From assembly GCA_039180285.1 (NCBI GenBank), contig JBCDDN010000001.1, positions 19,922 to 83,921 of the forward strand: a stretch of 64,000 bases of DNA, given 5' to 3'. The notes beneath the pieces are model-generated. The model was not told where the DNA came from, did not search any database, and saw only the letters and a list, made by a program, of their open reading frames with translations. Origin of the DNA: Pseudomonadota bacterium (lineage in GTDB: Bacteria > Pseudomonadota > Alphaproteobacteria > Sphingomonadales > Sphingomonadaceae). Both the position numbers and the translations under genes were made by a program. Shown here piece by piece: positions 2,108 through 17,324 of this stretch (positions are counted from its first letter, which is position 1; each line of letters opens with the position of its first letter).

Positions 2108-4081
2108 TTAACTTTTGAGTCCGGACAGGATCTGCGGTGTGATAGCCGCTTCCGTCAGTCCGAAATATTCAAACAACCTGTTCGCCGGTGCAGAGCCGCC
2201 GAAACGGTCGATGCCGAAATTCAGTCCATCGAGGCCGGTATAGCGTTCCCAGCCGAAAGTCGCCCCCGCTTCGATCGAAACGCGCAGCACATTTTCTTCG
2301 CTACCCAGAATATCGGCTTTGTAGGCTTCGTCCTGGGCGTCGAAAAGTTCCCAGCAGGGCATCGAAACGACATCCACGCCAATTCTTTTTGCTTCGAGCT
2401 TATCGGCGACCTCCGCGGCCAGGTGCACCTCGGATCCTGTGGCCAGCAAAATGACCTTCCGGTCATTCTCGGCCGCCCGCAGCCGATAAGCACCCTTCTC
2501 ACAGAGATTTTCGCTGACATCGGTGCGCATCGGCGGAAGGCCTTGGCGAGTTAACGCATGCAAAGACGGCCCGTCCTTGCGCTTCAGCGACAGAGCCCAG
2601 CATTCTGCCGTCTCGATCGCGTCGCACGGTCGGTAGACATGAAGATTGGGCATGGCCCGCAAACTGGCAAGATGCTCGATCGGCTGATGGGTCGGGCCAT
2701 CTTCGCCCAGCCCGATCGAATCATGCGTCATGACATAGATTGCCCGCACCTGCTGGAGCGCGGACAGCCGGATAGCAGGTCGGCAATAATCGGAAAAAAT
2801 GAGAAACGTGCCGCCATAGGGGATCACGCCGCCGTGAAGCGCCATGCCGTTCATCGCCGCCGCCATGCCGAATTCGCGGATGCCATAATAGATATAGCGG
2901 CCGCCATAACTGTCTTTGGTCAGTGGGTCGGTGGCCCCGGTCTTCGTATTGTTCGATCCGGTGAGGTCAGCGGAACCGCCGATCGTATCCGGCAAAGCCT
3001 TGTTTATCGCGGTCAGCGCCATCTCCGAAGCCTTGCGCGTCGCAACCTTGGGTGGCTCGGCGGCGAGCGATTCAAGATAGTCCTGCATCGCATTGCCATC
3101 CGGCAGGTTGCCGGCAATTCTACGCTCAAATTCTGCTTTATCTGAGTGACTTGAAAGGCGATCATTCCACTCGGCTTGAAGATCGATGGACCGGCTTCCG
3201 GCCTCCTGCCACGCCTCGCCGATCTCGGGAGGAATGAGAAACGGCGCCGCATCCCATCCCAGCTCCTTGCGCGCACCGGCAATCTCGTCTTCGCCAAGCG
3301 GCGCGCCATGTGTCGCGGCGGTTCCCTGCTTGCTCGGCGCGCCGTAACCGATCACCGTCTTGCAGGCGATCAGCGACGGCCGCGGATCGGCCAGCGCCTC
3401 TTCGATGGCGAACCGGATCGCGTCCGGATCATGGCCATTGCATTGCGTCACATGCCAGCCCGCGGCCTCGTAGCGCGCGGGAATATCCTCGCTCGACGAC
3501 AAATCCGTGCCGCCATCGATCGTAATGTCGTTATCGTCCCAGAACGTGATGAGCCGGCCGAGCCGCAAATGCCCTGCCAGGCCGATCGCCTCATGGTTGA
3601 TGCCTTCCATCAGGCAGCCATCACCAGCAATCACCCAGGTCCGGTGATCGACCAGATCGTCGCCGAAATGCGCATTCAAATGGCGCTCCGCGATCGCCAT
3701 GCCGACTGCCATAGCGAGTCCTTGCCCGAGCGGTCCGGTCGTGGCTTCGACGCCTGGCAGAAGGAAATTTTCCGGATGGCCCGCACAGGGGCTCCCCAGC
3801 TGGCGGAAGTGCTTGATTTCATCCATCGTAGGTCGTGCATATCCGGTGAGATGGAGCAGCGAATAGATGAGCATCGAGCCATGGCCAGCCGACAGAACGA
3901 ATCTATCTCTATCAAACCAATCAGGGTCTTGAGGATTATATTTAAGATATTTTGTGAACAGAACGGTCGCCACATCCGCCATGCCCATCGGCATTCCCGG
4001 GTGACCGGAATTGGCTTCCTGGACCGCATCCATCGACAGGGCGCGGATGGCATTGGCAAGTTGGATGTGGGTGACGGTCAT
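2108..4081 (-). CDS. tkt: transketolase
   Basis: 657-aa ORF. Has ALSMDAVQEANSGHPGMPMGMADVA and GDGCLMEGI thiamine-diphosphate motifs. Immediately upstream of gap. Confidence 0.95.
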   Translation of the reverse strand: MTVTHIQLANAIRALSMDAVQEANSGHPGMPMGMADVATVLFTKYLKYNPQDPDWFDRDRFVLSAGHGSMLIYSLLHLTGYARPTMDEIKHFRQLGSPCAGHPENFLLPGVEATTGPLGQGLAMAVGMAIAERHLNAHFGDDLVDHRTWVIAGDGCLMEGINHEAIGLAGHLRLGRLITFWDDNDITIDGGTDLSSSEDIPARYEAAGWHVTQCNGHDPDAIRFAIEEALADPRPSLIACKTVIGYGAPSKQGTAATHGAPLGEDEIAGARKELGWDAAPFLIPPEIGEAWQEAGSRSIDLQAEWNDRLSSHSDKAEFERRIAGNLPDGNAMQDYLESLAAEPPKVATRKASEMALTAINKALPDTIGGSADLTGSNNTKTGATDPLTKDSYGGRYIYYGIREFGMAAAMNGMALHGGVIPYGGTFLIFSDYCRPAIRLSALQQVRAIYVMTHDSIGLGEDGPTHQPIEHLASLRAMPNLHVYRPCDAIETAECWALSLKRKDGPSLHALTRQGLPPMRTDVSENLCEKGAYRLRAAENDRKVILLATGSEVHLAAEVADKLEAKRIGVDVVSMPCWELFDAQDEAYKADILGSEENVLRVSIEAGATFGWERYTGLDGLNFGIDRFGGSAPANRLFEYFGLTEAAITPQILSGLKS

Positions 4082-4238
4082 ACGGTTTCCCCTGTTCGGG
4101 CCATTCCGGCTCCTCGGTCGGCCGGGAGACGGCCCAGCGAGTCGTGAGCGCGCGCGACCACTTGGAATGTCGTGCGGTTATCGTCAACCATCGCGCCCAC
4201 AGACTTGCCGGGAACGGCTTTCCTGCTATGCACGGCGC

Positions 4239-4658
4239 ATGGACAATGATCGCCTCGCCCGCGCAATTGCTAGGATTGAGGAAGCGACCGCCCGGATCGG
4301 CGACGCAAGGCCTCAATCCGCCCCCGCCGTCGATCAGAGCACCGAAAATGCGCTCAAAGCCGAACTCGAATCGATAAAAGCCGCGCATAAGGTGACGCTT
4401 GAGGATCGCGACCGCACAATCGCCAAATTGCGTGCGGATTTCGCCGATATCGGTAAACTCAAGGACGAGGAGATTGAACGGTTGCGCGCCGATCTTGCCG
4501 CGCGCGATACAGCCGAGACGACGACCGAGAAAACGGTACCGGACGCCGCTTTCCAAGCGTTGCAGCACAAATATGACGGCCTGCGCGCCGTCGCCGAAAC
4601 CGCGCTCGCCGATCTCGACGGGCTGATCGCCAAGGCGGAGCGCGCGGAAAATGGCTGA
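4239..4658 (+). CDS. coiled-coil protein upstream of zapA (DUF4164 / ZauP-like)
   Basis: Track ORF 4011-4658 trimmed to ATG 4239 (MDNDRLARAIARIEEA...), because the 5' extension overlaps the tkt start region. Charged heptad-like sequence. Its stop overlaps the zapA start, as for the Caulobacter gene pair. Confidence 0.6.
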   Translation: MDNDRLARAIARIEEATARIGDARPQSAPAVDQSTENALKAELESIKAAHKVTLEDRDRTIAKLRADFADIGKLKDEEIERLRADLAARDTAETTTEKTVPDAAFQALQHKYDGLRAVAETALADLDGLIAKAERAENG

Positions 4659-4956
4659 AGTCACGCTGACCATCGCCGGACACAGCTATACTGTCGCCTG
4701 TCGCGACGGCGAAGAAGAACGGTTGAAAGCGCTCAGTCAAATGGTCGACGCGAAAACCGCCGATGCGCAGAAGGCGGTGGGCGGCAACCTTGGAGAAGCC
4801 CGGATATTGCTATTCGCGGCCTTGCTGCTTGCCGACGAAGTCGACGAGTTGCGCACCAGCGGCGTGCCTGACGGGGCGATCGAGGATCTTGAGAAGCTGG
4901 CCGACCGGCTTACCGTCATCGGCGACCGTCTTGCTTCAGACAGCCGGGCAACCTAG
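4651..4956 (+). CDS. zapA: cell division protein ZapA
   Basis: 101 aa, MAEVTLTIAGHSYTVACRDGEEERLKALSQMVD..., the typical ZapA N-terminal pattern. Sits in the conserved position before the 6S RNA / 5-FCL locus. Confidence 0.8.
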   Translation: MAEVTLTIAGHSYTVACRDGEEERLKALSQMVDAKTADAQKAVGGNLGEARILLFAALLLADEVDELRTSGVPDGAIEDLEKLADRLTVIGDRLASDSRAT

Positions 4957-4961
4957 ATCGG

Positions 4962-5120
4962 AGATGGCGGGCGCTGCCCGGTACGCGCCTTTGCGAATAT
5001 CCCTGAGGCGATACAACATCCAAGGGAGCTGTCCCTGTCCGGATTGCGGGATTTGAAATAGAGTCCGGGTCCGGTGCATATGGCGCCCACCTGACGTTAT
5101 TGGCGTCAGAGGATTTTCGG
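4962..5120 (+). ncRNA. ssrS: candidate 6S RNA (ends approximate)
   Basis: About 200 nt of non-coding sequence between zapA and the 5-formyl-THF cyclo-ligase gene, the conserved ssrS position. GGCGGGCGC (4966-4974) can pair with GCGCCCACC (5083-5091), and TGCCCGG (4975-4981) with CCGGTGCA (5071-5078), giving a long closing helix around internal hairpins. A CTGACG/CGTCAG hairpin plus a U-rich run lies at 5092-5118. Confidence 0.45.
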
Positions 5121-5162
5121 GTAAACGGCCATGGCGGCCCCGCCACCCGAGCAGGCGAAATC

Positions 5163-5732
5163 ATGACGAAAACCGAATTGCGATTATGCTTTAAGAAAGC
5201 ACGGCAAGATTTTGTTTTATCAAGTAATAATGAAAGTATTTGCTCGTGCAAGCAAACGCTGTCCGAGCATATCCTGAATGCCGATATCATAAACGGCACG
5301 ATCGGCGGTTATGCTGCCATGACGTCAGAATTAGATCCCTCGAAACTGATCGAAATATGCCGCGAAAGGGGTCATCGGATTGCCCTGCCTTATTTTGAGA
5401 ATAGAGACAGCGCCATGCGATATCGGCAATGGGACGACGCGTCTTTCGAACATGGCCCCTTCGGAATTCGTCAACCGACTACGAAATGCAAAACGATCGA
5501 GCCGGACACGCTGTTGATACCGCTCGTCGCAGTGGACTTGAAAGGCAACCGATTGGGTCAAGGCCAGGGGCATTATGACCGCATTCTCGCCAGATTTCGC
5601 GCAGAAAGGCCCATCACAGCCATTGGTGTCGCCTGGACCTGCCAGATCGCCGACCGGATTCCGGTCGACCCGTGGGACGAACCGCTCGATTACATTGCCA
5701 CTCCGGACCGAATCATTAAGGTGAAGTCATGA
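5163..5732 (+). CDS. 5-formyltetrahydrofolate cyclo-ligase
   Basis: Track ORF trimmed to ATG 5163 (MTKTELRLCFKKAR). C-terminal LIPLVAVDLKGNRLGQGQGHYDR motif typical of the family. Confidence 0.85.
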   Translation: MTKTELRLCFKKARQDFVLSSNNESICSCKQTLSEHILNADIINGTIGGYAAMTSELDPSKLIEICRERGHRIALPYFENRDSAMRYRQWDDASFEHGPFGIRQPTTKCKTIEPDTLLIPLVAVDLKGNRLGQGQGHYDRILARFRAERPITAIGVAWTCQIADRIPVDPWDEPLDYIATPDRIIKVKS

Positions 5733-5926
5733 AGCCAAGCTGGCGCAAACCCTTCGGAACATTCGTCATAATCGGAATTATCGTGATCTGGGCGATCATC
5801 GTGGCCAGCGCATCGGGGCCGATCGGTACGCTGCCGGCATTGATCCAAGCACCGATCTACCTAGCGGCCGGAATCGTCTGGATCCTGCCGCTCAAACCGC
5901 TTTTGATGTGGATGGAAACTGGAAAA

Positions 5927-5938
<12 letters not shown>
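5729..5938 (+). CDS. small two-TM membrane protein (DUF2842-like)
   Basis: 69 aa with two hydrophobic helices. ATGA overlap with the upstream stop. Its 3' end overlaps the tRNA-Asp 3' end by 12 nt. Confidence 0.55.
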
Positions 5939-6003
<65 letters not shown>

Positions 6004-6022
6004 ATAGGCGTTGAAGACGCGC

Positions 6023-6051
6023 GAGTTAGGGGAGCCGCTTAGCCCTGTCAA
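6023..6051 (-). promoter_or_regulatory. candidate sigma70-type promoter for tRNA-Asp
   Basis: On the minus strand: TTGACA (6051-6046), a 17-nt spacer, then TAACTC (6028-6023). This is about 20 nt upstream of the mature tRNA 5' end. Confidence 0.4.
6029..6043. repeat. 15-nt direct repeat GGGGAGCCGCTTAGC, copy 1
   Basis: Exact 15-mer also present at 14600-14614 (18 of 20 identical when extended leftward). Each copy lies just upstream of a minus-strand tRNA gene. Confidence 0.8.
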
Positions 6052-6287
6052 GCGAAGTTGCACGGCGCGGTACGCACCCCGCGCAGGCGCATCCAAATAT
6101 TTACGCTTTATTTACTATTGGCAAATGTTTTACCCTAATATCCGTGCGATCGACGCGAATATATCTCGCAAAACCCCATTTTCAGACGAACCTACCCAAA
6201 ATAGCCCCGGCTTTTTTACCGCTTATTAGAGTTAATTGCTCATGTAGGCCCCGTAAGTGATTTTTTCATCCGCGGGGGATGCCTTAA

Positions 6288-7286
6288 ATGTTGCCTATTC
6301 GGCACCGATACAGATCGCGCTTAGCGGGGCGTTTTTCGCTCTGCCTGGCCATGCTGTCGTCTGTTCTGATTGCACCGACCGCCCATGCTGCCGGTACGCT
6401 GGCCGGCACGCCGATCGAGAATACGGCAACGGCAACCTATGACGAGGGCGGCACGACGATCACGGTCGATTCCAATACGGTTTCGCTGATCGTCGACGAA
6501 ATTCTCGACATCGCCGTTTCGTCCGCCAATCCCGGTGACGTCACCGCAAGTCCTGATGAAGACGATGTCGTTCTGAGCTTCACGGTTACGAACGGTGGCA
6601 ATGGACCCGAGCCCGTGCTGCTGACGATCGATCCGAATATCGGCGGCGACGATTTCGACCCTGACACCGTGACTCTTTATATAGATACCGACGGCAACGG
6701 CAGTTACGATGCCGGAACCGACACGCTATATAGCGCCTCGACACCGCCGACCTTCGATCCCGACCAAACGATCACCGTTTTCGTTTTGGGCGATATGCCG
6801 ACCGCTGCGGATGGCGATCGCAGCGAAGTCGGACTCACCGGCACGGCAGCGACAGGAAGCGGGACACCGGGCACGGTTTTTGCCGGTCAAGGCGAGAGTG
6901 GCGGCAATGCCGTTGTCGGCGCAACCAGCGCAACGGCCAGCGATAGCGGTTTTTACGCGATCGTCGATGCCGATCTCGATCTCACCAAGACCGCGACGGT
7001 CGCCGATCCCTTCGGCGGGACGAGCCAGATCCCCGGTGCAACGATCACCTATCGGCTAACGGCCGAAGCTACCGGTTCGGGATCGCTCGACAACGTCGTC
7101 ATCTCGGACGCGATCCCCGCCGACACGACTTATGTCGACGACAGCATCACCCTGGATGGGACCGCGCTCACCGATAATTCCGATGCCGATGCTGGCGAAT
7201 TCGACGGCACGGGTATCTCCGTAGCGCTGGGTACGGTTACCGGTGGAGGCACTAATATCATTGAATTTCAAGTCGTTATCGACTGA
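6288..7286 (+). CDS. secreted two-domain DUF11 (TIGR01451 conserved-repeat) protein, putative fibre subunit
   Basis: 332 aa. Signal peptide ...LIAPTAHA|AG. C-terminal DUF11 module DLDLTKTATVADPFGGTSQIPGATITYRLTAEATGSGSLDNVVISDAIPADTTYV...IIEFQVVID-stop. Paralogous to 7840-8931. Confidence 0.8.
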   Translation: MLPIRHRYRSRLAGRFSLCLAMLSSVLIAPTAHAAGTLAGTPIENTATATYDEGGTTITVDSNTVSLIVDEILDIAVSSANPGDVTASPDEDDVVLSFTVTNGGNGPEPVLLTIDPNIGGDDFDPDTVTLYIDTDGNGSYDAGTDTLYSASTPPTFDPDQTITVFVLGDMPTAADGDRSEVGLTGTAATGSGTPGTVFAGQGESGGNAVVGATSATASDSGFYAIVDADLDLTKTATVADPFGGTSQIPGATITYRLTAEATGSGSLDNVVISDAIPADTTYVDDSITLDGTALTDNSDADAGEFDGTGISVALGTVTGGGTNIIEFQVVID

Positions 7287-7292
7287 CGGAGA

Positions 7293-7760
7293 ATGAGCAT
7301 GAAGTATCTTATCGCACTATTCGCGCTGATCGCGCCGACCAGCGCCGTGATGGCCAATCAGGTCGCGCTGGACAGCGAGGTTTTTGTGGAGCGCAGCGAA
7401 GAGCAGGCGGACGGCAGCGTCACGGTCACGCTCGACGAGCCCAACCGGGTCATTCCGGGCGATACACTGGTTTTCGTGCTCACCTACGAGAATACCGGCG
7501 CGGAACCGGCCGAAAATTTCGTCGTGACGAATCCGATGCCCGATGCAGTGGCCTTTGTCGAAGCGATCGACGGCGGTGCTGTCTATTCGGTGGATTACGG
7601 CACGACCTTCGGCTCGCTGGCCGATCTCAGAGTCTTTGGCGAAGGCGGCGTCCAGCGCGATGCTCAAGCTGTCGATGTCACACATATTCGCTGGACGCTG
7701 ACCGAGCCGATCCCGGTCGGCGCGACCGGACAACTCAGATTTCGCGGCGTCGTCAGATAG
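7293..7760 (+). CDS. small secreted single-domain DUF11-like protein
   Basis: 155 aa. Signal peptide ...PTSAVMA|NQ. One Ig-like module (VIPGDTLVFVLTYENTGAEPAENFVVTNPMPDAVAFV...GQLRFRGVVR-stop). Starts 6 nt after the previous stop and has a GGAGA Shine-Dalgarno sequence. Confidence 0.7.
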   Translation: MSMKYLIALFALIAPTSAVMANQVALDSEVFVERSEEQADGSVTVTLDEPNRVIPGDTLVFVLTYENTGAEPAENFVVTNPMPDAVAFVEAIDGGAVYSVDYGTTFGSLADLRVFGEGGVQRDAQAVDVTHIRWTLTEPIPVGATGQLRFRGVVR

Positions 7761-7839
7761 CCGCGAGTGAAACCGCCAACATGTGCCTGCGGACCGGGGG
7801 GTGAAAGGCACTGAAGACGACAGAATTAGGACTAGGACA

Positions 7840-8931
7840 ATGAAAAGCATGACGAAATATCTCGTCTCTGTCAGCGGTGTAACGCTTGCGGCCTTGGCTG
7901 CGAGCCCCAGCTTTGCGCAAAACACCGCCGCCGGATCGAGCATCACGAATACGGTCACAGTCGGTTATCAAGTCGGTGGTGTTGCTCAAAATGATATCAC
8001 TGCATCCGATACGCTGACGGTTGATCGTGCCGTCAATATAGTTGTCGCCGAACTCGGCAATGCGACCACATCGGTTTCACCTGGCGAGCAGGACGCCGTG
8101 ACGACTTTCGAAGTCACCAATGAAACAAACGATTTTATCGATATTTCTTTGGCGGTATCCCAGATCGTTGGAGGAACAGCTGCCCATGGCGGCACTGATA
8201 GCTTCAACGTAGCCAACGTTGAAATCTATGTCGATGACGGCAATGGCAGCTTTGATCCAGGCGATACGCCCGTCACATTCCTCGATGAGATGGGTAATGG
8301 CGAAACGCGGCGCGTTTTTGTCGTGGCGGACGTCCCGTTAGGCCTCGCGACCGGCGATGTTGCGGATGTCGAGCTGACCGGTACAGCCCGAGAGGGCAAT
8401 GGCGGCACAACAGGTGCGCTGGGCGGCGTGATCTCCGTAGCCAGCAGCAACACGGCCGGCGAAGATACCATTTTTGCCGACAGCGATGGCGTTTTCGACG
8501 GAATCGCATTCGACGACGATGATTACACAGTGCAGGCCGCAGCGCTCTCGGCGCTTAAGGGCAGTACCGTGCTTGCCGTCAACTATCCGATCACCGGAGC
8601 CACGGAATTCTACAACATTCCGGGTGCAACGGTCGAATATTGCATCGCCGTGAGCAACGCCGCGGGCGGTGCCGCCGCGACCAATGTCGCGATTTCGGAC
8701 ACGCTGCCGGCCAACACGACCTTCGTCGGTTCGTCGATCGTGATCGGCGGAACCGCGACGATCGACGATGGCGGCACGCCCGGCAATACCGCGGACGATA
8801 CGCTGACCAGCTGCGACAATAGCGGCGGTTCGGCCGGCGGCACGTTCGCGGCCGGCACGGTTTCGGCAACTATCGGCACGGTTGCGGCCGGCGCGACCGA
8901 GATCGTGACCTTCCGGGCAACGATCGACTAA
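7840..8931 (+). CDS. secreted two-domain DUF11 protein, paralogue of 6288-7286
   Basis: Track ORF trimmed to ATG 7840 (MKSMTKYLVSVSGVTLAALAASPSFA|QN). Same architecture as 6288-7286 and same ending (...TEIVTFRATID-stop). Confidence 0.8.
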   Translation: MKSMTKYLVSVSGVTLAALAASPSFAQNTAAGSSITNTVTVGYQVGGVAQNDITASDTLTVDRAVNIVVAELGNATTSVSPGEQDAVTTFEVTNETNDFIDISLAVSQIVGGTAAHGGTDSFNVANVEIYVDDGNGSFDPGDTPVTFLDEMGNGETRRVFVVADVPLGLATGDVADVELTGTAREGNGGTTGALGGVISVASSNTAGEDTIFADSDGVFDGIAFDDDDYTVQAAALSALKGSTVLAVNYPITGATEFYNIPGATVEYCIAVSNAAGGAAATNVAISDTLPANTTFVGSSIVIGGTATIDDGGTPGNTADDTLTSCDNSGGSAGGTFAAGTVSATIGTVAAGATEIVTFRATID

Positions 8932-8942
8932 GCGGATTGAGC

Positions 8943-11900
8943 ATGGCCGCCGGACGTTCGACCGGCGGCCCGCAGCTCAAAACCATGCTTCGCTCGCTCC
9001 TCTCGGTATGTGCAATGTTTTTTGCACTATTCGCTGCGCTATTGTCGCCGGTGAGTATGGCTGCGCACGCGCAGACGATATCGAACATCGCCTATGTTGA
9101 GTGGGACGCAGGCGGCGAGCGGCGGCGCGAGCCGTCCAACCAACTTGATATCGACGTCGAACTCGTCGCCGGGACACCCCCGGAAATTGGCCTGTTCCAA
9201 TTCAGTCCCGGTGATGGCGGCGGCGCGACCGATATCATGCTTGCGGACGCAGCGAGTTGTGTCGCTATTCCACCCCATACATCGCCCGCTCTCGGCGGCA
9301 CCTATGCCGGCGTTCCGATCCAACCGGCGTCCGTGACCGGCGCGTCGGCTGTCCGTCCCGGCGAACCGTTGATCTTCGTCGTCGAGCATGGGGCCTCGAA
9401 TGCCGATCAAACCGCAATCGAAACCTATGAAATCGTTATAGAAACAGCAGAAGGCGATCGGGAGCGCCTGATCCTGACAGAGACGGAAGCAGATAGCGGC
9501 GTCTTTGCCGGCTTCATATTCACGACCGCCGTACCGCCAACGCCCACGCCGGAAGATTGCGAACTATCGGTCGTGCCCGGTTCGGAACTCCGGATCGCGC
9601 CAACCGGTGAGAACGGCCTGCGGGAGTTTACCGAACTTGCGGTCGAAGTTCTCGAAAGCTTTGGCTCCACGGTATTCGACAGCGAAACCGGCGACCCTGT
9701 AAACGGTGCCCGCGTAACGCTCGTCGACGCCGAAAGCGGGCAGCCGGCGCAGGTTTTCGGAAATGACGGCGTTTCGACATTTCCGGCAACGGTCGTAACC
9801 GGCGAACGAACGACGGACAGCCGAGGCTTTGCCTATGTGCCGGGGCCGGGCGATTTCTTCTTTCCCGTCGTACCGCCGGGCCGATACCGGCTGATCATCG
9901 AGCCGCCCGAACCCTATACGGAGATATCGCAGGCAACGCCCCAGGAATTGGCGGCTTTTGTCGATTCTCGGGGTAACCCGTACGACATCGTGACCGGTTC
10001 CTATGGCGACGCCTTCACGCTGGGCGGGATTTCGCCGATCGAGATCGACATACCGCTCGACCAGCCATCCGCACCGTTGCTGATCGAGAAAGCGGCCTCG
10101 CGCCAGCTCGCCGTGCCGGGCGACCCAATCCTGTTCAGCATTCGCGTGAGCAGCTCAGATCCGAGCCGGCCGACCCGGCCGCTGGTGATCAGCGACGAGC
10201 TTCCCTCGCAACTGCGCCTTCGCCCGGATTCACTACGGCTGGATGGAGAGCGGATTGCCGACGGAGTAGATATCGCACCCGATGGACGTAGATTTACCGT
10301 TGAAATACCGCGACTTGCGTCCGGGGCATCGGGCGTGCTGACCTATGTCACGGAAGTGCTTCCCCAGGCCCGTGCGGGCGATGCGACCAACAGCGCCCAG
10401 GCCCGCGACGACCGGGGTCAGGTCAGCAATATCGCCGACGCCACCATACGGGTCACGCGGGAGACTCTGGCGAGCCGGATGACGATCATCGGACGGATTA
10501 CCGACGGCGGATGCGGTGTCGATCCCCGTACCGCGCGCGGTGTGCCGGGTGTCCGCGTAATGATGGAAGACGGCAGTTATTCGGTCACCGACGAAGACGG
10601 CCGCTATCATTTCGAAGCCGTGATGCCCGGTTTGCACGTTGTCCAGATGGACGAATCCTCCCTTCCGCTGGACCGTGCGGCGGTCGACTGCGCGCGCAAT
10701 ACGCGATCCGCCGGACGCGCTTTCTCGCGCTTCGTCGAAGGCCAGGGCGGCGGCCTCTACCGTGTCGATTTCCGCGTCCGAGCTGTCGAGCCGCGCGAGG
10801 CCCCGGCCAATTCCGTACCCGCCATTGAGCGCCCGGAGCCGGTATCCGACGCCGAGGCGGCAGGCGCCGACCGCGATTGGCTGATCGGACAGGAACCGGG
10901 CATCGACTGGATATTCCCGGCAACCGATTACAATCCGCGCACCCGCGTTATACGGGCCGCGATCAAGCACCTTCCCGGCCAGACCGTGCAGCTGTCGCTC
11001 AACGGCAGCCCGGTTGCACCGGTCGCCTTCGAAGGTGTGCGCACCAACCCGGCCAACACGGTTTCGGTCAGCCATTGGCGGGGCATCGGAATCGAACCCC
11101 GCGAAAACCGATTGGTCGCGGAGATCCTGGATGCCGATGGCGCGGTGGTGGAAACGCTCAGCCGTACCGTACATTTCGGCAACGCGCCGATCCGGGCGGA
11201 GCTGATCCCGGAACGCTCGCGCCTGATAGCCGACGGCGTCTCGCGTCCCCTGATCGCAGTGCGGCTTACCGATCGCGACGGACAGCCCGTGCATCATGGC
11301 CTGACCGGCGACTTTGCTGTCCCCTCGCCCTACTTCCCGGCAGTCGAGGCGGACGCGCAACAGGCGCGTCAACTGGCAGGCCTCGAGCGCGCAGCGCCGG
11401 TTTGGCGTGTCGAAGGCGATGAAGGCATCGCCTATATCGAACTCGAACCGACGACGGTCAGCGGCACATTGGCCGTCACCTTCCCGTTCCGCGACGGCGA
11501 GGTCGCGCGTGAGCAGAGCATCGAAACCTGGCTTGAGCCGGGTGATCGGCCCTGGACGATAGTCGGCTTTGCAGCCGGTACGGTCGGATTCAACCATCTC
11601 GACCGCAATCTCGAAGAGATCGGCGCCGATGAGGAGACCTGGTACACGGACGCCCGGGTCGCGCTCTATGCGCGCGGACGCGTCACCGGCCAATGGCTGA
11701 TGACGATGGCCTATGACAGCGATGCCGAGCGCGACGATACGCGCTTCCAGGGCGTTATCGATCCGAACCAATATTACACCATCTACGCCGACCGCTCGGA
11801 GCGCCGGTTCGACGCCGCCAGCGTCCGCCGCCTCTATCTGCGGCTCGAGCGCCCACAATTCTATGCGATGTTCGGTGACTATGAGACCAATTTCAACGAG

Positions 11901-14108
11901 ACCCAGCTCACGCGCTACAATCGGAGCTTCAACGGCGTGCGCGCCGAATTCCGCAACGAGCGCGTTTCGGCAACCGCTTTCGCCGCGGACACGCCTTATC
12001 GATTCCGTCGCGTCGAGATCCAGGGTAACGGCCTGACCGGCCCTTATGCGATCGGCAGCACACAGCTGCTGGCGAACAGCGAACGGATCACGATCGAGGT
12101 GCGGGATCGGCTGCGGTCGAATATCGTGCTGTCGAGCCAGCAGTTGGTCCGTCACATCGACTACGACATCGACTATTTCAACGGAACGCTCCGGTTCCGC
12201 GAACCGATCCTCAGCCGCGACTCCGCGCTCAACCCGCAATTCGTCGTCGTCGAATATGAGGTCGACGGTGTGGCCGCGCGCCGAATCAACGCTGGCGGTC
12301 GTTTCACCTGGACCACATCCGACCAGCGCCTGCGGATCGGCGTCACCGCCATTCGCGACGATGATAATGTCCGCGAGACCAATATGGGCGGAATAGACAT
12401 CCGGTGGCGGCCCAACGACACGACCGAAATCCGGGCCGAGTTCGCGGCCAGCGATACCGATCCGGGGGCGAGTGCCGCGCCGACCGAAGACAATCCGGGC
12501 ACGGCCACTGCCTGGCTGGTCGAGGCCGAGCATCACAGTTCGGATTTCGACATTCTCGCCTATGCCCGCGAACAGGATGCAGACTACGGCGTCGGTCAGC
12601 TGAGCGGCGCAGAAAGCGGCACGCGCAAGTTCGGTTTCGACGGCCGGGTACGGATCGACGAACGCCTTTCGCTCGCGGCGAGCGGCTGGCACGAGAATTT
12701 CCTGACCAGCGGTGCCCGGCGTATCGCCGGCCAGGCCATGCTCGAATATCGCGGCGATACGACAGACGGTCGGGTCGGCATCATCTACAGCAATGACGAG
12801 CTGAGCGACGGCACGACGCTCGAATCGACTCTGCTCCAACTGGGTGCGACGCAGCGGCTGTTCGGCAATCGCCTGACGCTCGATGCACAGACCGAGTTTG
12901 CGCTGGACGAAGCGGAAAGCGTCGACTTCCCGGCGCGCCATCAGTTCACGGCCCGCTTCGCGGCGACCGAGTGGATTACGCTGGTCGGCGGCTACGAAAT
13001 CGCCGAGGGCGACACGATCGATGCGCGCACGGCACGCGTCGGCTTCGATCTCCAGCCCTGGTCGGGTGCGCGCATATCGCTGGCCGGCAATCAGCAGGAC
13101 ATCGCCGAATATGGTCCGCGTACTTTTGCCGCCTATGGTTTCGCGCAGTCGGTAGTGATCGACGAAAACTGGTCGATCGATTTCTCGCTCGATGGCAATA
13201 AGACGCTGAACGGCGGCATCGATCCCGATACGGTGCTCAATCCGGCCCAACCCGTCGCCAGTGGCGGCTTTGTCGGCAACGGCACCAATCCGACGCTGAC
13301 CGAGGACTTCACGGCCGTGACCGCGGGCGCGACCTACCGCGGTGATCGCTGGAGCTGGGCGGGCCGCGCAGAATATCGCGATGGCGATCGCGAGAACCGC
13401 TATGGCCTGACCACGTCGCTGCTGCGCCAGATCGGCGAGGGCAGCGCGGTCGGCGGCGCCTTCTCCTGGCTGCGCGCCGAACAGGATGGCGGCGCGACGA
13501 GCGAGATCACCTCGCTCGAAATTTCGATCGCCCACCGTCCGATGGACAGCGATTGGTCGTTCCTCAACAAGCTCGAGCTGCGCAGCGACGAGATCACCAA
13601 TGCGGTGGCCGGCCAGCCTGGCCCGGTCGGCAGCGCCCCGCTGCTCGTTTCGGGCGACCAGCGCTCGCGCCGCATCGTCAACAGCTTCTCCCTCAACTAT
13701 TCGCCGACGAGCACCGGCCTCAGCATGTTCGGCGGCGAAGACTGGCTCGACCGCAGCGAATTCACCTTCTTCTGGGGCACGCGCTATGTTTCCGACCGGT
13801 TCGGGACGGCGGATGTCGAAGGCTGGAGCAACCTCTTCGGCGCCGATGCGCGTTTCGATCTGTCCGAAACCATCGATATCGGAGCATCGGCCAGCATCCG
13901 CGAAGGCAATGGCGGGCGCGCCTGGACCTGGTCCATAGGCCCGAATATCGGCATCAGCCCCATCGAAAACACTTGGATTTCAATCGGTTACAACATTGCC
14001 GGTTTCGAAGATCGCGACTTCGAAGCGGCCCGCTACACGCGCGACGGACCCTATGTCACCTTCCGCCTGCGCTTCGATCAACAGACCTTCCGGGACCTCG
14101 GTTTCTAG
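8943..14108 (+). CDS. giant secreted protein: N-terminal strand motif, carboxypeptidase-regulatory-like domains, DUF11 domain, and a large C-terminal outer-membrane beta-barrel
   Basis: 1723-aa track ORF (TTG 8937). ATG 8943 or ATG 8985 (MLRSLLSVCAMFFALFAALLSPVSMAAHA|QT) are the likelier starts. Complete DUF11 module at about nt 10077-10454. CarboxypepD_reg-like segments at about 9663-9911 and 10479-10652. The last ~700 aa show alternating-hydrophobic strands and end ...YVTFRLRFDQQTFRDLGF. Confidence 0.8.
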   Translation: MAAGRSTGGPQLKTMLRSLLSVCAMFFALFAALLSPVSMAAHAQTISNIAYVEWDAGGERRREPSNQLDIDVELVAGTPPEIGLFQFSPGDGGGATDIMLADAASCVAIPPHTSPALGGTYAGVPIQPASVTGASAVRPGEPLIFVVEHGASNADQTAIETYEIVIETAEGDRERLILTETEADSGVFAGFIFTTAVPPTPTPEDCELSVVPGSELRIAPTGENGLREFTELAVEVLESFGSTVFDSETGDPVNGARVTLVDAESGQPAQVFGNDGVSTFPATVVTGERTTDSRGFAYVPGPGDFFFPVVPPGRYRLIIEPPEPYTEISQATPQELAAFVDSRGNPYDIVTGSYGDAFTLGGISPIEIDIPLDQPSAPLLIEKAASRQLAVPGDPILFSIRVSSSDPSRPTRPLVISDELPSQLRLRPDSLRLDGERIADGVDIAPDGRRFTVEIPRLASGASGVLTYVTEVLPQARAGDATNSAQARDDRGQVSNIADATIRVTRETLASRMTIIGRITDGGCGVDPRTARGVPGVRVMMEDGSYSVTDEDGRYHFEAVMPGLHVVQMDESSLPLDRAAVDCARNTRSAGRAFSRFVEGQGGGLYRVDFRVRAVEPREAPANSVPAIERPEPVSDAEAAGADRDWLIGQEPGIDWIFPATDYNPRTRVIRAAIKHLPGQTVQLSLNGSPVAPVAFEGVRTNPANTVSVSHWRGIGIEPRENRLVAEILDADGAVVETLSRTVHFGNAPIRAELIPERSRLIADGVSRPLIAVRLTDRDGQPVHHGLTGDFAVPSPYFPAVEADAQQARQLAGLERAAPVWRVEGDEGIAYIELEPTTVSGTLAVTFPFRDGEVAREQSIETWLEPGDRPWTIVGFAAGTVGFNHLDRNLEEIGADEETWYTDARVALYARGRVTGQWLMTMAYDSDAERDDTRFQGVIDPNQYYTIYADRSERRFDAASVRRLYLRLERPQFYAMFGDYETNFNETQLTRYNRSFNGVRAEFRNERVSATAFAADTPYRFRRVEIQGNGLTGPYAIGSTQLLANSERITIEVRDRLRSNIVLSSQQLVRHIDYDIDYFNGTLRFREPILSRDSALNPQFVVVEYEVDGVAARRINAGGRFTWTTSDQRLRIGVTAIRDDDNVRETNMGGIDIRWRPNDTTEIRAEFAASDTDPGASAAPTEDNPGTATAWLVEAEHHSSDFDILAYAREQDADYGVGQLSGAESGTRKFGFDGRVRIDERLSLAASGWHENFLTSGARRIAGQAMLEYRGDTTDGRVGIIYSNDELSDGTTLESTLLQLGATQRLFGNRLTLDAQTEFALDEAESVDFPARHQFTARFAATEWITLVGGYEIAEGDTIDARTARVGFDLQPWSGARISLAGNQQDIAEYGPRTFAAYGFAQSVVIDENWSIDFSLDGNKTLNGGIDPDTVLNPAQPVASGGFVGNGTNPTLTEDFTAVTAGATYRGDRWSWAGRAEYRDGDRENRYGLTTSLLRQIGEGSAVGGAFSWLRAEQDGGATSEITSLEISIAHRPMDSDWSFLNKLELRSDEITNAVAGQPGPVGSAPLLVSGDQRSRRIVNSFSLNYSPTSTGLSMFGGEDWLDRSEFTFFWGTRYVSDRFGTADVEGWSNLFGADARFDLSETIDIGASASIREGNGGRAWTWSIGPNIGISPIENTWISIGYNIAGFEDRDFEAARYTRDGPYVTFRLRFDQQTFRDLGF

Positions 14109-14308
14109 AGGTCCGCGCAACCCGAAACCGCGCTAAGTTCCCAAACGGTTGACACTGGTTGACACGCTCCGGGGGTACGCCCCTGGACTTTCCCCTGTTG
14201 GGGATGGCACGCCTTTCGCGATTCACTTTTCTCCTTTCCATGACGGCAGCGTCAGTGCGGAGTCTATCATGCGCGCCCAGCTGTAGGACAGGAAAAGCGG
14301 GGCCAGTT

Positions 14309-14394
14309 TTTGTCAGACTCGACCTGACCAGCCGAGCGCCGCATCGGGATTTTGTTTGTCAGACCTTCAGCTTCGCCTCACGGCGCCGCATCGG
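14309..14394. repeat. imperfect tandem direct repeat, period ~46 nt
   Basis: TTTGTCAGAC at 14309 and 14355. GCGCCGCATCGG at 14336 and 14383. Two units with conserved ends and divergent centres. Confidence 0.7.
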
Positions 14395-14398
14395 CACG

Positions 14399-14453
14399 CT
14401 CCCCCTCCTGGCCTTCCACAAGTGTACCCTGATTGGGAGGCCGGGAGGGAGAG
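14399..14453. other. long imperfect hairpin (15-19 bp stem)
   Basis: CCCTCCTGGCCTTCC (14403-14417) pairs with GGGAGGCCGGGAGGG (14435-14449) using two G-U pairs. The stem can be extended by 4 bp with one mismatch. Confidence 0.7.
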
Positions 14454-14505
14454 TGGGCTTGTGCGGAGATTTCCCGTTTGGGAAATTCCGACGAACAAAA
14501 ACCGG

Positions 14506-14590
14506 TGGTACCTCTGGCCGGAGTCGAACCGGCACTCCCGAAGGAACTCGATTTTGAGTCGAGCGCGTCTACCAATTCCGCCACAGAGGC
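14506..14590 (-). tRNA. tRNA-Leu (CAA)
   Basis: The reverse complement reads GCCTCTGTGGCGGAATTGGTAGACGCGCTCGACTCAAAATCGAGTTCCTTCGGGAGTGCCGGTTCGACTCCGGCCAGAGGTACCA. It has a long variable arm, a CAA anticodon and an encoded CCA. Confidence 0.9.
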
Positions 14591-14599
14591 CCGTAGTAG

Positions 14600-14614
14600 G
14601 GGGAGCCGCTTAGC
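14600..14614. repeat. 15-nt direct repeat GGGGAGCCGCTTAGC, copy 2
   Basis: Identical to 6029-6043. Here it forms the left arm of the 14604-14641 hairpin. Confidence 0.8.
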
Positions 14615-14641
14615 GAAGCGCCGCGCGCTTCGCAAGCGGCT
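14604..14641 (-). terminator. strong GC hairpin 10 nt downstream of the DUF805 gene stop (no U-tract)
   Basis: AGCCGCTT-A-GCGAAGCGC, loop CGC, then GCGCTTCGC-AAGCGGCT: 17 bp with one bulge. On the minus strand it is followed by CCCCCTACTACGG rather than Us, so a terminator function is uncertain. Confidence 0.35.
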
Positions 14642-14650
14642 CTCCATCGC

Positions 14651-15061
14651 CTAGGCGAATGTATCGGCCGTTCCCCGGCCCTTCGGGTCTTCGCCGAAGC
14701 GGTTGGGCCCCGGCGTTCCATCCAGGCACATGAACACCAACACGATCAAACCGCCGACATAGGGAATAAGGCCGAGCAGGATGAACCAGCCGGATTTATC
14801 CTGATCGTGGAACCGCCGCACCTGCACCGCCAATGACGGGATAATCAGTGCAAGCCCGGCAATACTGATCAAGCCCAGGGTGAACATTCCTATGGGCGAG
14901 TCCGGCCCGCTGGTTCCCAACACCGTGTCGAATATGGCGCCAACGATACCCAGGCCGATGAACAGCAAGATGTAAAAAAGTACGAACATCCAATATTCGG
15001 TGCGTCGCGAACGGCCGGAAAAATCGGCATAGCGCCGCAACGGCATAAGCATATATTCCAT
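14651..15061 (-). CDS. DUF805 family inner-membrane protein
   Basis: Trimmed to ATG 15061 (MEYMLMPLRRYADFSGRSRRTEYWMF...), which follows GGGAGGAAAG. Has the RRFHD motif and is flanked by TM helices. Confidence 0.8.
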   Translation of the reverse strand: MEYMLMPLRRYADFSGRSRRTEYWMFVLFYILLFIGLGIVGAIFDTVLGTSGPDSPIGMFTLGLISIAGLALIIPSLAVQVRRFHDQDKSGWFILLGLIPYVGGLIVLVFMCLDGTPGPNRFGEDPKGRGTADTFA

Positions 15062-15154
15062 GAAGCTTTCCTCCCTCAAAGATCATGCGCCCCTCCCGGA
15101 CTGTCGCCGAGCGCGGGAGAGATCAACCAAAAAACAGAAACAAGCAAGGACGAT

Positions 15155-16663
15155 CTAACTACGCGGCGGCTGGCGGCGATAGCTGAGCGCCTCCGCGATA
15201 TGGACGCGGCCGACCGTCTCGGCGCCCGACAGGTCCGCGATCGTCCGAGCGACGCGCAACACCCGGGAGTATCCGCGCGCCGTAAGCCGCATCGCCTCGG
15301 CCGCCTGGGCGAGCAAATTTCGCCCGGCTTCGTCCGGCACGGCGACTGCATCGAGCAATTCGCCATCCGCCTCGCAATTGGTGCGCACCGCCTCGTTCGC
15401 ATAACGGGCGGTTTGGATATCGCGTGCCGCGGCAACCCGTTCGGCCACCTCGTCCGAGCCTTCGGCGGGCCGCGGAAGGGTGAGATCGGCGGCGGATACG
15501 GCTTGCACATCGACATGAAGATCGATCCGGTCGAGCAGCGGACCGGAAATCTTTGCCTGATAATCGGCCGCGCATTTGGGCGCACGCGAACAGGCCAGCG
15601 CCGCATCGCCGAGATGACCGCACCGGCACGGATTCATCGCGGCGATCAGCTGCACCCGCGCGGGGAAGCTGACATGTGCATTGGCGCGAGCAATCGAAAC
15701 AGTGCCGGTTTCGAGCGGCTGACGAAGAGAATCGAGCACCGGGCGCTGGAATTCGGGAAGCTCGTCCAGAAACAATACCCCCAGATGCGCGAGGCTCACT
15801 TCGCCCGGCCGGACCTTCAACCCACCGCCGACCAACGCCGCCATCGAAGCCGAATGATGGGGCGCGCGAAACGGCCGGTTGCGGGCCAATCTACCTTCTT
15901 CCAACGTGCCGGCAACGCTCGCCACCATCGATACTTCGAGCGCTTCCGGCGCCGTCAGGTCGGGCAAAATTCCCGGCAGGCAGGCCGCCATCAGCGATTT
16001 TCCGGATCCCGGCGGCCCCGACATCAGCAGGTTGTGTCCGCCCGCCGCCGCGATCTCGAGCGCGCGTTTTGCCGTCTCCTGCCCTTTGACCTGTTTGAGA
16101 TCGGGACCGGCGACCGGTTCCTCGACCTCCCCAGGGGTCGGCGCGGGGAGCTGGCTCGTGCCTTTGAAATGGTTGAGCAGGGAAAGGAGATCGGGTGCGC
16201 CGATCACTTCGACATCGCCGGCCCAGGCCGCTTCCGGACCTTGCGCCGCCGGACAGACCAGACCGAGATCGCGAGACGAGGCGTTGAGCGCGGCCAGCAG
16301 GACACCCGGCGAAGGCGCGACCCGGCCATCCAGCCCGAGTTCACCGACCACCACATAGCCCGCCAAAGTCTCGGCATCGATCACGCCCATCGCACCCAAC
16401 AGCCCGAGCGCGATCGGCAAGTCGTAATGCGAGCCTTCCTTGGGCAGGTCGGCGGGCGACAGATTGATCGTTATCCGCTTGGGCGGAAGCGCCAGGCCGA
16501 TCGCCGAAATCGCGGCGCGCACCCGTTCGCGGCTCTCGGCGACCGCCTTGTCCGGAAGCCCGACCAGATTGAAGGCGGGTACGCCGGGTGCGATCTGCAC
16601 CTGCGCTTCGACGGCACGCGCTTCGAGCCCCAGATACGCCGTCGTCGCGACATGAGCGACCAT
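15155..16663 (-). CDS. comM: YifB/ComM family Mg-chelatase-like AAA+ ATPase
   Basis: 502 aa. Lon-protease-like N-terminus, Walker A GPPGSGKS and an arginine-finger region. Confidence 0.9.
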   Translation of the reverse strand: MVAHVATTAYLGLEARAVEAQVQIAPGVPAFNLVGLPDKAVAESRERVRAAISAIGLALPPKRITINLSPADLPKEGSHYDLPIALGLLGAMGVIDAETLAGYVVVGELGLDGRVAPSPGVLLAALNASSRDLGLVCPAAQGPEAAWAGDVEVIGAPDLLSLLNHFKGTSQLPAPTPGEVEEPVAGPDLKQVKGQETAKRALEIAAAGGHNLLMSGPPGSGKSLMAACLPGILPDLTAPEALEVSMVASVAGTLEEGRLARNRPFRAPHHSASMAALVGGGLKVRPGEVSLAHLGVLFLDELPEFQRPVLDSLRQPLETGTVSIARANAHVSFPARVQLIAAMNPCRCGHLGDAALACSRAPKCAADYQAKISGPLLDRIDLHVDVQAVSAADLTLPRPAEGSDEVAERVAAARDIQTARYANEAVRTNCEADGELLDAVAVPDEAGRNLLAQAAEAMRLTARGYSRVLRVARTIADLSGAETVGRVHIAEALSYRRQPPRS

Positions 16664-17320: not shown

Positions 17321-17324
17321 GGCG

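Follow-up and report, generated by a model that had tools for sequence, protein, structure and literature searches.

The four co-oriented genes at positions 6288-14108 of the window, the 64,000-nucleotide stretch of contig JBCDDN010000001.1 (GCA_039180285.1) to which all coordinates refer, encode secreted proteins in which the DUF11, or CLIPPER, fold is split. As far as can be read from the sequences, in the first and third proteins the last two strands of the fold, which carry the isopeptide asparagine, are N-terminal, and the first seven strands, which carry the lysine and the aspartate, are C-terminal. This split is the principal new observation of the analysis. The locus is a conserved, widespread and unannotated system. 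The evidence is about evenly balanced on whether it is an undescribed split-CLIPPER fibre or adhesin system, whose subunits would be joined by donor strands, possibly with a covalent lock, and which would be exported and anchored by the fourth protein. The genes, called g1-g4 in their order, are as follows (aa, amino acids).

6288-7286, plus strand: g1, secreted two-domain subunit of 332 aa; open reading frame (ORF) with DUF11 and TIGR01451 matches
7293-7760, plus strand: g2, secreted single-domain protein of 155 aa; truncated CLIPPER domain, no hairpin
7840-8931, plus strand: g3, paralogue of g1, 363 aa; hairpin, middle domain and truncated CLIPPER domain
8943-14108, plus strand: g4, 1721 aa; signal peptide, donor hairpin, about six immunoglobulin (Ig)-like domains and a very large C-terminal beta-barrel

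The ORFs and the short gaps between them are as given in the original prediction: 6 nucleotides (nt) separate g1 from g2 and 79 nt separate g2 from g3, and the gap after g3 is 11 nt long if g4 starts with the ATG at 8943 and 53 nt long if it starts with an alternative ATG at 8985. The same prediction placed a DUF11/TIGR01451 module in all four proteins, and each of them is indeed matched by Pfam DUF11, by TIGR01451, or by both. The Pfam profile (PF01345, cut-off 24.6 bits) scores 24.7 bits with g1, 29.1 with g2 and 25.0 with g4; g3 scores 23.3 bits at full length, under the cut-off, and 33.1 bits as an isolated domain. TIGR01451 (cut-off 24 bits) scores 39.0, 30.7 and 41.1 bits with g1, g2 and g3, and 18.8 bits, under the cut-off, with g4. 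The NCBIfam scan also produced a weak match to TIGR04226, the model of the RrgB D2 isopeptide domain. On these profile matches the cassette proteins are CLIPPER proteins at the domain level.

Split CLIPPER domains in the subunits

The DUF11 fold itself is already known. The family was renamed CLIPPER in 2025, and its structure is available as PDB 9IFR (PMC12617251). CLIPPER is a CnaA-like domain of nine strands in which a Lys and an Asn form an intramolecular isopeptide bond, with an Asp as catalyst; in the canonical domain the Lys is in strand 1, the Asn is near the C-terminal end, and the fold finishes with strand 9 (PMC12617251). Domains of this type have been surveyed as stalks of fibrillar adhesins (PMC12617251).

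The Pfam DUF11 profile has 114 positions, and its matches in the small cassette proteins are incomplete. They cover positions 1-66/68 in g1, 3-71 in g2 and 15-84 in g3, and in each case the protein finishes at the end of the match (C-termini ...FQVVID, ...FRGVVR and ...FRATID, respectively). The g1 protein consists of a signal peptide (aa 1-34), an N-terminal two-strand hairpin, a middle Ig-like domain and the C-terminal truncated CLIPPER domain. At their N-termini the mature g1, g3 and g4 proteins have a motif in common, I-x-N-x-A ... S-N-x-V-x-x-x-V, which is retained in distant phyla and is the pattern of the last two CLIPPER strands, the isopeptide Asn included. Two hidden Markov models (HMMs) were built from segments of the cassette, a 36-position "hairpin" model and a 114-position "acceptor" model. 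The modules of g1 and g3 are listed below.

6402..6500, plus strand: donor hairpin of g1 (aa 39-71, TPIENTATATY...SNTVSLIVDE), with Asn45; hairpin HMM 50.8 bits
6966..7283, plus strand: acceptor domain of g1 (aa 227-332, the end of the protein), with Lys234 and Asp274; acceptor HMM 121.9 bits
7927..8028, plus strand: donor hairpin of g3 (aa 30-63, SSITNTVTVGY...SDTLTVDR); hairpin HMM 37.7 bits
8539..8928, plus strand: acceptor domain of g3 (aa 234-363), with a conserved pair of Cys besides Lys and Asp; acceptor HMM 103.4 bits

The g1 hairpin is equivalent to strands 8-9 of the canonical domain and the g1 acceptor approximately to the first seven strands. The residues of the isopeptide triad are strongly conserved: the hairpin Asn in 67 of 69 g1 proteins, the Lys and the Asp in all 69, and N11, K214 and D261 of mature g3 in each of 57 sequences. 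In the contiguous CLIPPER domains of longer relatives the hairpin HMM matches directly after the acceptor HMM, as in a relative of 913 aa with the acceptor at 354-448 and the hairpin at 453-465. Compared with the canonical domain, g1 and g3 are thus permuted.

The permutation was tested by appending hairpins to the truncated domains and rescanning them with Pfam DUF11, with reversed or shuffled hairpins as controls. The g3 domain alone scores 33.1 bits and reaches profile position 84; real hairpins raise this to 37.5-38.5 bits and to position 107-110, the controls to 33.5-35.2 bits and position 95-98. For g2 the values are 29.5 bits and position 71 alone, 33.7-34.8 bits and position 100-105 with real hairpins, and 28.1-31.8 bits and no extension with the controls. 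For g1, which was scanned with real hairpins only, the score rises from 27.5 bits (to position 68) to 28.1-29.0 bits (to position 97-110). The effect is modest but consistent for g3 and g2, and weak for g1.

An AlphaFold2 model of mature g3, made with an alignment of 57 sequences, has a mean predicted local distance difference test score (pLDDT) of 91.3 and a predicted template modelling score (pTM) of 0.78. It contains seven main strands in the C-terminal domain and two hairpin strands, modelled at positions 8-15 and 27-34 of the mature protein, and so fits a 7+2 split of the nine-strand fold. Foldseek with this model retrieved generic tandem-Ig structures (integrin legs, MSCRAMM N2N3, CupB6, PrgB) with template modelling (TM) scores of 0.2-0.3; at this level the comparison does not separate docking of the hairpin in cis from docking in trans.

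Tandem duplications of g3 (order g1-g2-g3-g3-g4) were observed in three Sphingomonadales loci (L037, L052, L084). They suggest that g3 is a diversifying structural subunit.

Partition of donors and acceptors

The g4 protein also starts with a donor hairpin, and in at least 20 loci g4 is directly followed by a fifth gene, often overlapping it by 4 nt, whose product ends in an acceptor. The fifth gene is absent from the window. The hairpins (donors) and truncated domains (acceptors) are distributed over the proteins as follows.

g1 and g3: hairpin present; acceptor present; Asn, Lys and Asp all present in 141 of 143 proteins
g2: no hairpin; acceptor present, truncated; no Lys, and Asn in place of Asp in 68 of 70 sequences
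g4: hairpin present, its Asn in 77 of 79 proteins; no unpaired acceptor, the sole recognisable CLIPPER domain being complete, with Lys, Asp and Asn each in 77 of 79
fifth-gene protein: no hairpin; acceptor present and the best-scoring domain (36-55 bits), with Lys and Asp; no Asn strand after it

Two features of this distribution are informative. Firstly, there are an unpaired donor and unpaired acceptors, conserved across phyla, which implies complementation between different proteins. Secondly, Lys and Asp are retained in acceptors that have no Asn of their own. The fifth-gene proteins, with a C-terminal acceptor, no N-terminal hairpin and no strands 8-9 after the acceptor, are of this kind, and two g1 proteins have Ser for the hairpin Asn and keep both Lys and Asp. 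This would mean that the Asn comes from another protein, and thus that the isopeptide bond is intermolecular. Taken together, the pattern implies strand complementation in trans among the predicted cassette proteins.

The fifth-gene products are adhesin-like proteins of 500-1400 aa with Calx-beta, SpaA_4, P_proprotein or tandem CLIPPER domains. The g2 protein, with the motif TNP.P and neither the catalytic Lys nor the Asp, has a size of 152-165 aa across phyla, with one outlier of 189 aa (L086). Its candidate roles are a decoy-acceptor chaperone or a non-covalent cap.

The giant barrel protein

The features of g4, in their order along the protein, are the following.

9072..9161, plus strand: N-terminal donor hairpin (QTISNIAYVEW...SNQLDIDVE); hairpin HMM 34.0 bits
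10077..10445, plus strand: complete CLIPPER domain inside g4 (aa 379-501), Lys, Asp and Asn all present in it; positions 2-113 of 114 of the Pfam DUF11 profile
10521..10646, plus strand: CarboxypepD_reg-like Ig domain (best stretch aa 527-568); PF13620, 38.7 bits in two stretches
11559..12023, plus strand: first strands of the barrel region (aa 873-1027), low confidence; AlphaFold2 pLDDT below 65
12081..12269, plus strand: small beta-sandwich (aa 1047-1109) inserted between strands of the barrel; strands 228-287 in the model of the fragment, pLDDT about 56-67
12279..14075, plus strand: confident part of the barrel (aa 1113-1711), with about 31-33 consecutive strands, antiparallel, at pLDDT 70-90

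The hairpin HMM also matches distant g4 proteins, with 13-26 bits. The g1 HMM aligns to the N-termini of g4 proteins through the signal-plus-hairpin part only, and no truncated acceptor that would match the g4 hairpin is recognisable within g4. The profile of the family matches PDB 9IFR at the internal CLIPPER domain; against the PDB as a whole it matches only the CLIPPER, OmpA and Ig parts, and PDB sequence searches with g1, g3 and g4 taken singly gave chance-level matches only. Reading of the sequence suggests a second CarboxypepD_reg-like domain near aa 245-375.

No model from Pfam, NCBIfam or the PDB sequences covers the barrel region. It was modelled with AlphaFold2 (g4 aa 820-1721, alignment of 25 sequences; mean pLDDT 66.6, pTM 0.52). 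Upstream of the confident part there are about seven poorly predicted strands and the sandwich of aa 1047-1109, which by analogy with ushers is a candidate plug domain. The last strand of g4 ends in Phe (VTFRLRF). Nearly all Foldseek matches of the barrel in the PDB are outer-membrane barrels (SlpA, MtrB, BtuB, LptD, SprA, FimD) with E values of 1e-8 to 1e-5, and the TM-scores normalised to the query are only 0.13-0.26. Judged by the model, the fold class of the barrel is clear, and no specific family is matched. The original prediction saw a very large beta-barrel in the C-terminal 700 aa or so, with a non-membrane fold as the outcome that would speak against it. A large barrel of the outer-membrane type is what AlphaFold2 and Foldseek give, and only the extent has to be restated, as about 600-850 aa. 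A comparison of odd and even hydrophobicity in strands of the barrel and of the Ig domains was also tried; the means (1.99 and 2.06) do not discriminate between them.

Some homologues of the barrel are named "TonB-dependent receptor" or "outer membrane protein transport protein". These names have no support from Pfam or NCBIfam, and neither the Plug (PF07715) nor the 22-strand barrel (PF00593) model of TonB-dependent receptors matches g4 or three so-named or related homologues.

Conservation and variants of the cassette

The original prediction proposed co-occurrence in relatives as a check, and the four genes do recur together. The order g1-g2-g3(-g3)-g4 is retained in 64 of the 67 loci with enough upstream DNA, and the remaining three reflect ORF-calling problems or divergence. 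A pattern scan with one genome per species confirmed at least 597 loci. Sources named among the matches include Moraxellaceae, Gammaproteobacteria, Steroidobacteraceae and Nitrospirae, and the sizes of the products are nearly constant across such distant lineages, as in these metagenome-assembled genomes (MAGs).

Moraxellaceae MAG: g1, g2, g3 and g4 of 329, 162, 363 and 2189 aa
Nitrospirae MAG: 353, 165, 400 and 1821 aa
Steroidobacteraceae MAG: 327, 163, 358 and 1788 aa

Full-length homologues of g4 occur throughout Sphingomonadales, under the names "hypothetical" or "DUF11 domain-containing". The C-terminal 902 aa of g4 retrieve 3111 clusters (50% identity) at E <1e-3, 1187 of them at E <1e-30; the clustered proteins are 1500-2800 aa long and have variable N-terminal halves. 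In most g4 proteins from outside the sphingomonads an OmpA-like peptidoglycan-binding domain lies between the Ig region and the barrel. The OmpA_C-like domain (PF00691) is absent from g4 of the window in the Pfam scan.

The contexts of the cassette in Erythrobacter, Qipengyuania and Alterisphingorhabdus are unrelated to each other, and Parasphingopyxis marina (L001) keeps the bracket of tRNA-Asp and tRNA-Leu seen in the window. Since the contexts in relatives are unrelated, the cassette behaves as a unit that has moved.

Several variants were observed. In GCA_030145205.1 (L085) there are two complete tandem copies, at 2599-18319 and 18952-28319, and in each the place of g1 is held by a long CLIPPER protein ending in an acceptor (1248 or 913 aa). 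Plasmid p4 of Acinetobacter haemolyticus w12 (L091, 3276-15641) carries a variant with a giant protein of 2008 aa with an N-terminal hairpin, followed by OmpA as a separate downstream gene and then by an acceptor-ending protein of 978 aa; the small subunit genes upstream look fragmented (97, 145, 187 and 272 aa), and a transposase adjoins the cluster. About 6 kb from its cassette, Alterisphingorhabdus coralli has a gene (L003, 21503-25106, minus strand) for a trimeric autotransporter adhesin of the YadA type, which is over 4800 aa long.

Relatives of the barrel also exist as separate proteins. Plasmids of Rhizobiales (accessoryA of S. meliloti T073, L090; pOM-1 of Nitratireductor, L092; pT1293b of Phyllobacterium, L093) carry a module of two genes overlapping by 4 nt, the first for a giant DUF11 protein (1859 to more than 3300 aa, with near-identical repeats of 118 aa) and the second for a barrel protein of 1261-1275 aa. 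The latter is homologous to g4 aa 870-1195, approximately (tblastn, query positions 49-377), and to the C-terminal end of g4. The motif GYN..GF.D...F is common to the C-termini of g4 and of the stand-alone barrels, which end in KF (...GKF). As in the cassette, the barrel is partnered with a CLIPPER-repeat protein, here by translational coupling. However, it is a separate protein, and no g1/g2/g3-type subunits and no hairpin/acceptor split were detected in these modules. They provide independent support for the link between the barrel family and CLIPPER proteins.

Possible mechanism and alternative explanations

The following assembly would account for the partition of donors and acceptors. After export by the Sec pathway, a protein that has only an acceptor would start the fibre, this being the fifth-gene adhesin where present and g2 elsewhere. 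Then g1 and g3 would join head-to-tail, each inserting its N-terminal hairpin into the open C-terminal domain of the preceding subunit. Insertion would regenerate a beads-on-a-string CLIPPER stalk, locked by intermolecular Lys-Asn isopeptide bonds. Finally, the hairpin of g4 would terminate the chain and tie the fibre to the outer membrane. The giant barrel of g4 may be both export pore and anchor, with the insert of aa 1047-1109 as a possible plug, and in most relatives outside the sphingomonads the OmpA-like domain would tie g4 to peptidoglycan. Alternatively, g2 may be a catalytically dead periplasmic decoy acceptor that holds the hairpins non-covalently until assembly. That a surface fibre is produced is suggested by the logic of the sequences.

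If all of this held, the cassette would define a new class of pilus in two-membrane bacteria, built from natural Tag/Catcher CLIPPER pairs, each a tag of two strands with the Asn and a catcher of seven strands with Lys and Asp, self-polymerising head-to-tail and covalent without sortase, ATP or a classical chaperone, with g2 as a dead catcher and inverse chaperone on which the tags are parked, and g4 combining usher, terminator and covalent anchor. We put this stronger proposal forward as tentative.

Several observations weigh against a fibre assembled in trans. In the AlphaFold2 monomer of g3 the protein's own hairpin is placed at pLDDT 81-95, presumably docked in cis on its own C-terminal domain. 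On this reading, a CLIPPER domain that is circularly permuted but complete in itself, the middle domain being inserted in it, is sterically possible, and an intramolecular bond in g1 and g3 would block polymerisation. The gain of g1 in the permutation test is only 0.6-1.5 bits. Conservation of the hairpins across paralogues was considered as a sign of promiscuous pairing in trans and was dropped for lack of a signal: within genomes the g1 and g3 hairpins are 34% identical, versus 31% for the other domains. The hairpins are thus no more alike than the rest of g1 and g3, and conservation gives no evidence of cross-compatibility. The barrel was modelled with moderate quality (pTM 0.52), its first 290 residues being poorly predicted. 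Finally, the position of the OmpA-like domain in most relatives, between the Ig region and the barrel, means that at least part of the region before the barrel is periplasmic, and the entire N-terminal half of g4 could be.

The first of these observations leads to the best surviving alternative, which is nonetheless unlikely in our estimate. The g1 and g3 hairpins would complete the CLIPPER domain of the same molecule with an intramolecular bond, and only the g4 hairpin would capture g2 or the fifth-gene adhesin in trans, so that the product would be a single hooked adhesin. Besides the confident docking in the g3 model and the absence of extra conservation between the g1 and g3 hairpins, it agrees with the domain insertions known in isopeptide domains of Gram-positive pilins, to which the weak match to RrgB D2 (TIGR04226) may be added. 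However, g1 and g3, which are universally conserved, would then have no role, and the work would fall to the accessory fifth gene. In the four-gene version of Sphingomonadales the g4 Asn (77 of 79 proteins) would be left without a Lys/Asp partner, as g2 has neither residue, and two g1 proteins retain Lys and Asp without an Asn of their own. AlphaFold is expected to satisfy the contacts of a homopolymer in cis where the geometry allows. Closed monomer models were obtained for the TafA subunits of haloarchaeal fimbriae, and yet their assembly by donor-strand exchange was proposed (PMC11821415). The g3 monomer model is probably best seen as ambiguous and not contrary to assembly in trans, and it keeps the monomer alternative alive.

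It is improbable that the locus encodes an envelope scaffold, with g4 as a peptidoglycan-tethered outer-membrane protein like SlpA of Deinococcus or OmpA and with its Ig half and g1-g3 in the periplasm. The SlpA barrel is among the best Foldseek matches, and an OmpA-like domain immediately precedes the barrel in most relatives. However, the g4 proteins of Sphingomonadales, including that of the window, have no OmpA domain. The fifth-gene partners are long and variable and have domains typical of surface adhesins, in line with the survey of CLIPPER domains as stalks of fibrillar adhesins (PMC12617251). By our estimate six or seven Ig domains with the subunits are probably wider than the periplasm, and a barrel of more than 30 strands is too large for a mere anchor.

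The remaining alternative, that g4 is an autotransporter or two-partner-type adhesin whose barrel would export the passenger of g4 itself, and perhaps soluble g1-g3, without strand assembly and with the N-terminal motif as an export or recognition signal, is very improbable: the order of Ig passenger and C-terminal barrel in g4, the coupling of barrel and giant DUF11 genes in Rhizobiales, which is like two-partner secretion, and the invariable position of the hairpin at the mature N-terminus agree with it, but no autotransporter, TpsB/POTRA, intimin or usher model matches, the motif corresponds in alignment to the final strands of CLIPPER domains, isopeptide Asn included, and a pure targeting signal would explain neither the partition of donors and acceptors nor Lys and Asp kept without the Asn strand.

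Comparison with known systems

Assembly of split CLIPPER subunits in trans would resemble chaperone-usher pili (Fim, Pap), a likeness already raised in the original prediction and strengthened by the partition of donors and acceptors. In both cases incomplete Ig-like subunits exported by Sec would be completed by an extension at the N-terminus of the next subunit, and one operon would encode a tip adhesin that has only an acceptor, a terminator that carries a donor, and a large outer-membrane barrel, possibly plugged. However, the cassette has neither a PapD-like chaperone nor a PF00577 usher. No chaperone of this type (PF00345/PF02753) was found in g1-g4, in the scanned neighbours or in the Pfam annotation of nine related loci, and the usher profile does not match g4, FimD being only a generic barrel match (E about 1e-5, TM-score 0.19). 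Moreover, the missing piece in the cassette is a CnaA-like two-strand hairpin and not a single G strand, the g4 barrel has more than 30 strands versus 24 and is fused to the terminator or anchor, and a Lys-Asn lock is predicted.

In BsaA of C. perfringens (PMC11580942) and in the threads of Sulfolobus (PMC9715654), an intermolecular isopeptide bond is known to form after the exchange of donor strands. The likeness to the BsaA/TasA fibres and the Sulfolobus threads consists of an inserted N-terminal strand, a spontaneous Asn-Lys bond, an acidic catalyst and the absence of a sortase. However, the folds are unrelated, and the hosts are monoderm or archaeal, with no outer membrane and no barrel. 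BsaA/TasA fibres are characterised by TasA-fold subunits with an N-E-K triad, by oligomers that are cross-linked and by a signal peptidase of the SipW type in the operon; no TasA-family or signal-peptidase matches were found in the cluster with Pfam and NCBIfam. Only the proposed mechanism would be analogous to these fibres.

Sortase pilins (SpaA, RrgB) and CLIPPER adhesins share with the cassette the CnaA-like superfamily and the Lys-Asp/Glu-Asn triad. Their isopeptide bonds are intramolecular and their domains contiguous, whereas the domain of the cassette is split, its parts lying at opposite ends of one subunit or in separate proteins. There is no LPXTG motif or membrane anchor in g1-g3 and no sortase domain in the scanned neighbours.

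Precursors of the type V pili of Bacteroidota (Fim/Mfa) are lipoproteins that are cut by an Arg-specific protease before strand exchange. The signal peptides of the cassette contain no lipobox Cys, and no FimA/Mfa matches were found with Pfam. Nor are there matches to the barrels of type V secretion (PF03797, PF11924, ShlB/POTRA); the modelled barrel has about 31 or more strands versus 12 or 16.

Haloarchaeal tat-fimbriae (tafi; PMC11821415) were modelled as four parts linked through donor strands, namely a tip protein that initiates assembly, an adapter, a major subunit and a terminator anchored in the membrane. However, in this model the first donor strand comes from the tip protein TafC, so that the polarity differs; export is by Tat, and it is the cytoplasmic membrane that holds the anchor. 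Tafi have a DUF1102-like fold, and an isopeptide bond has not been proposed for them. They resemble the cassette in logic only.

The original prediction also held that no assembly pathway had been described for DUF11 proteins in Proteobacteria. We found neither such a pathway nor a description of this operon in the open-access literature (subscription journals may contain one), and no characterised family of pili, S-layers or adhesins was matched in Pfam, NCBIfam, PDB sequences or open-access papers. Two leads from the literature were discarded: "DUF11" in the tafi paper (PMC11821415) and in a Brucella review is a prefix artefact of DUF1102 and DUF1134, respectively. In the F-ENA anchors DUF11 domains are present merely as spacers.

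Gene starts and genomic context

All four proteins were originally predicted to have Sec-type signal peptides, and both reading of the sequences and conservation in homologues bear this out. Each N-terminus combines a positive n-region with a hydrophobic core and a site of the AxA type, features conserved in 69-79 homologues per gene, and the signal peptides of g1, g2, g3 and g4 end in AHA/A, VMA/N, SFA/Q and AHA/Q, respectively, where the slash marks the cleavage site. AGGA precedes the ATG of g3. From the alternative ATG at 8985, g4 would have 1707 aa. The NCBI call for the identical MAG protein (AAGE05_00180, 1683 aa) begins with MAAHAQT, past the signal peptide, and thus the deposited g4 protein has no export signal; against this call, homologues of 1695-1712 aa back the longer start.

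The cassette is bracketed by two tRNA genes.

5927-6003, minus strand: tRNA-Asp
14506-14590, minus strand: tRNA-Leu

The other flanking genes encode GAPDH, transketolase, 5-formyltetrahydrofolate (5-FTHF) cyclo-ligase, a DUF805 protein and a ChlI-like ATPase. As originally noted, no chaperone, usher, sortase, secretin or type I secretion system genes are present nearby, that is, among the ORFs scanned in approximately 5 kb upstream and 2.5 kb downstream; the syntenic locus of Parasphingopyxis marina likewise has no known secretion or pilus machinery next door. Hairpin and acceptor modules were found in no other ORF of the 64-kb window.

A scan for promoter and terminator consensus sequences together with an Rfam scan of 5700-14700 identified the two tRNAs only and no riboswitch. 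The approximately 400 nt downstream of g4 (14109-14505) are non-coding and contain a tandem "ggttgacac" near 14148-14166 and a strong stem-loop at about 14385-14467, possibly a terminator or a repeat element, where Rfam gave only chance-level matches to precursors of microRNAs. The GC content of g1-g2 (0.57-0.59) is slightly under that of the flanks. An open frame of 1100 aa antisense to g4 (10233-13535, minus strand) is most likely no gene and merely reflects how GC-rich the coding region of g4 is (0.64-0.655).

Implications

The barrel family is widespread, with more than 3000 clusters at 50% identity; the source names of its members are from Alpha- and Gammaproteobacteria and Nitrospirae, many of them marine, soil and wastewater taxa, and all its members are annotated only as "hypothetical" or "DUF11 domain-containing". 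Cultured carriers of the system include Parasphingopyxis marina, Erythrobacter sanguineus, Qipengyuania aurantiaca, Novosphingobium sp. THN1 and Acinetobacter haemolyticus w12. Should g1 and g3 prove to be monomers, the barrel family dedicated to CLIPPER proteins would still be undescribed, and so would the unpaired donor of g4 and the unpaired acceptor of the adhesin-like partner. If the subunits do complement each other in trans, these pairs, split by nature and self-ligating, would also offer a new supply of orthogonal Tag/Catcher reagents.

The survey of CLIPPER domains (PMC12617251) quotes an older open question, whether Gram-negative bacteria have isopeptide-bonded pilins. Since then only intramolecular isopeptide bonds have been shown in these bacteria. 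Assembly of the cassette proteins as proposed here would extend the answer to intermolecular bonds. It would also add a further fibre-building pathway in bacteria with an outer membrane, the first there with covalently joined subunits.

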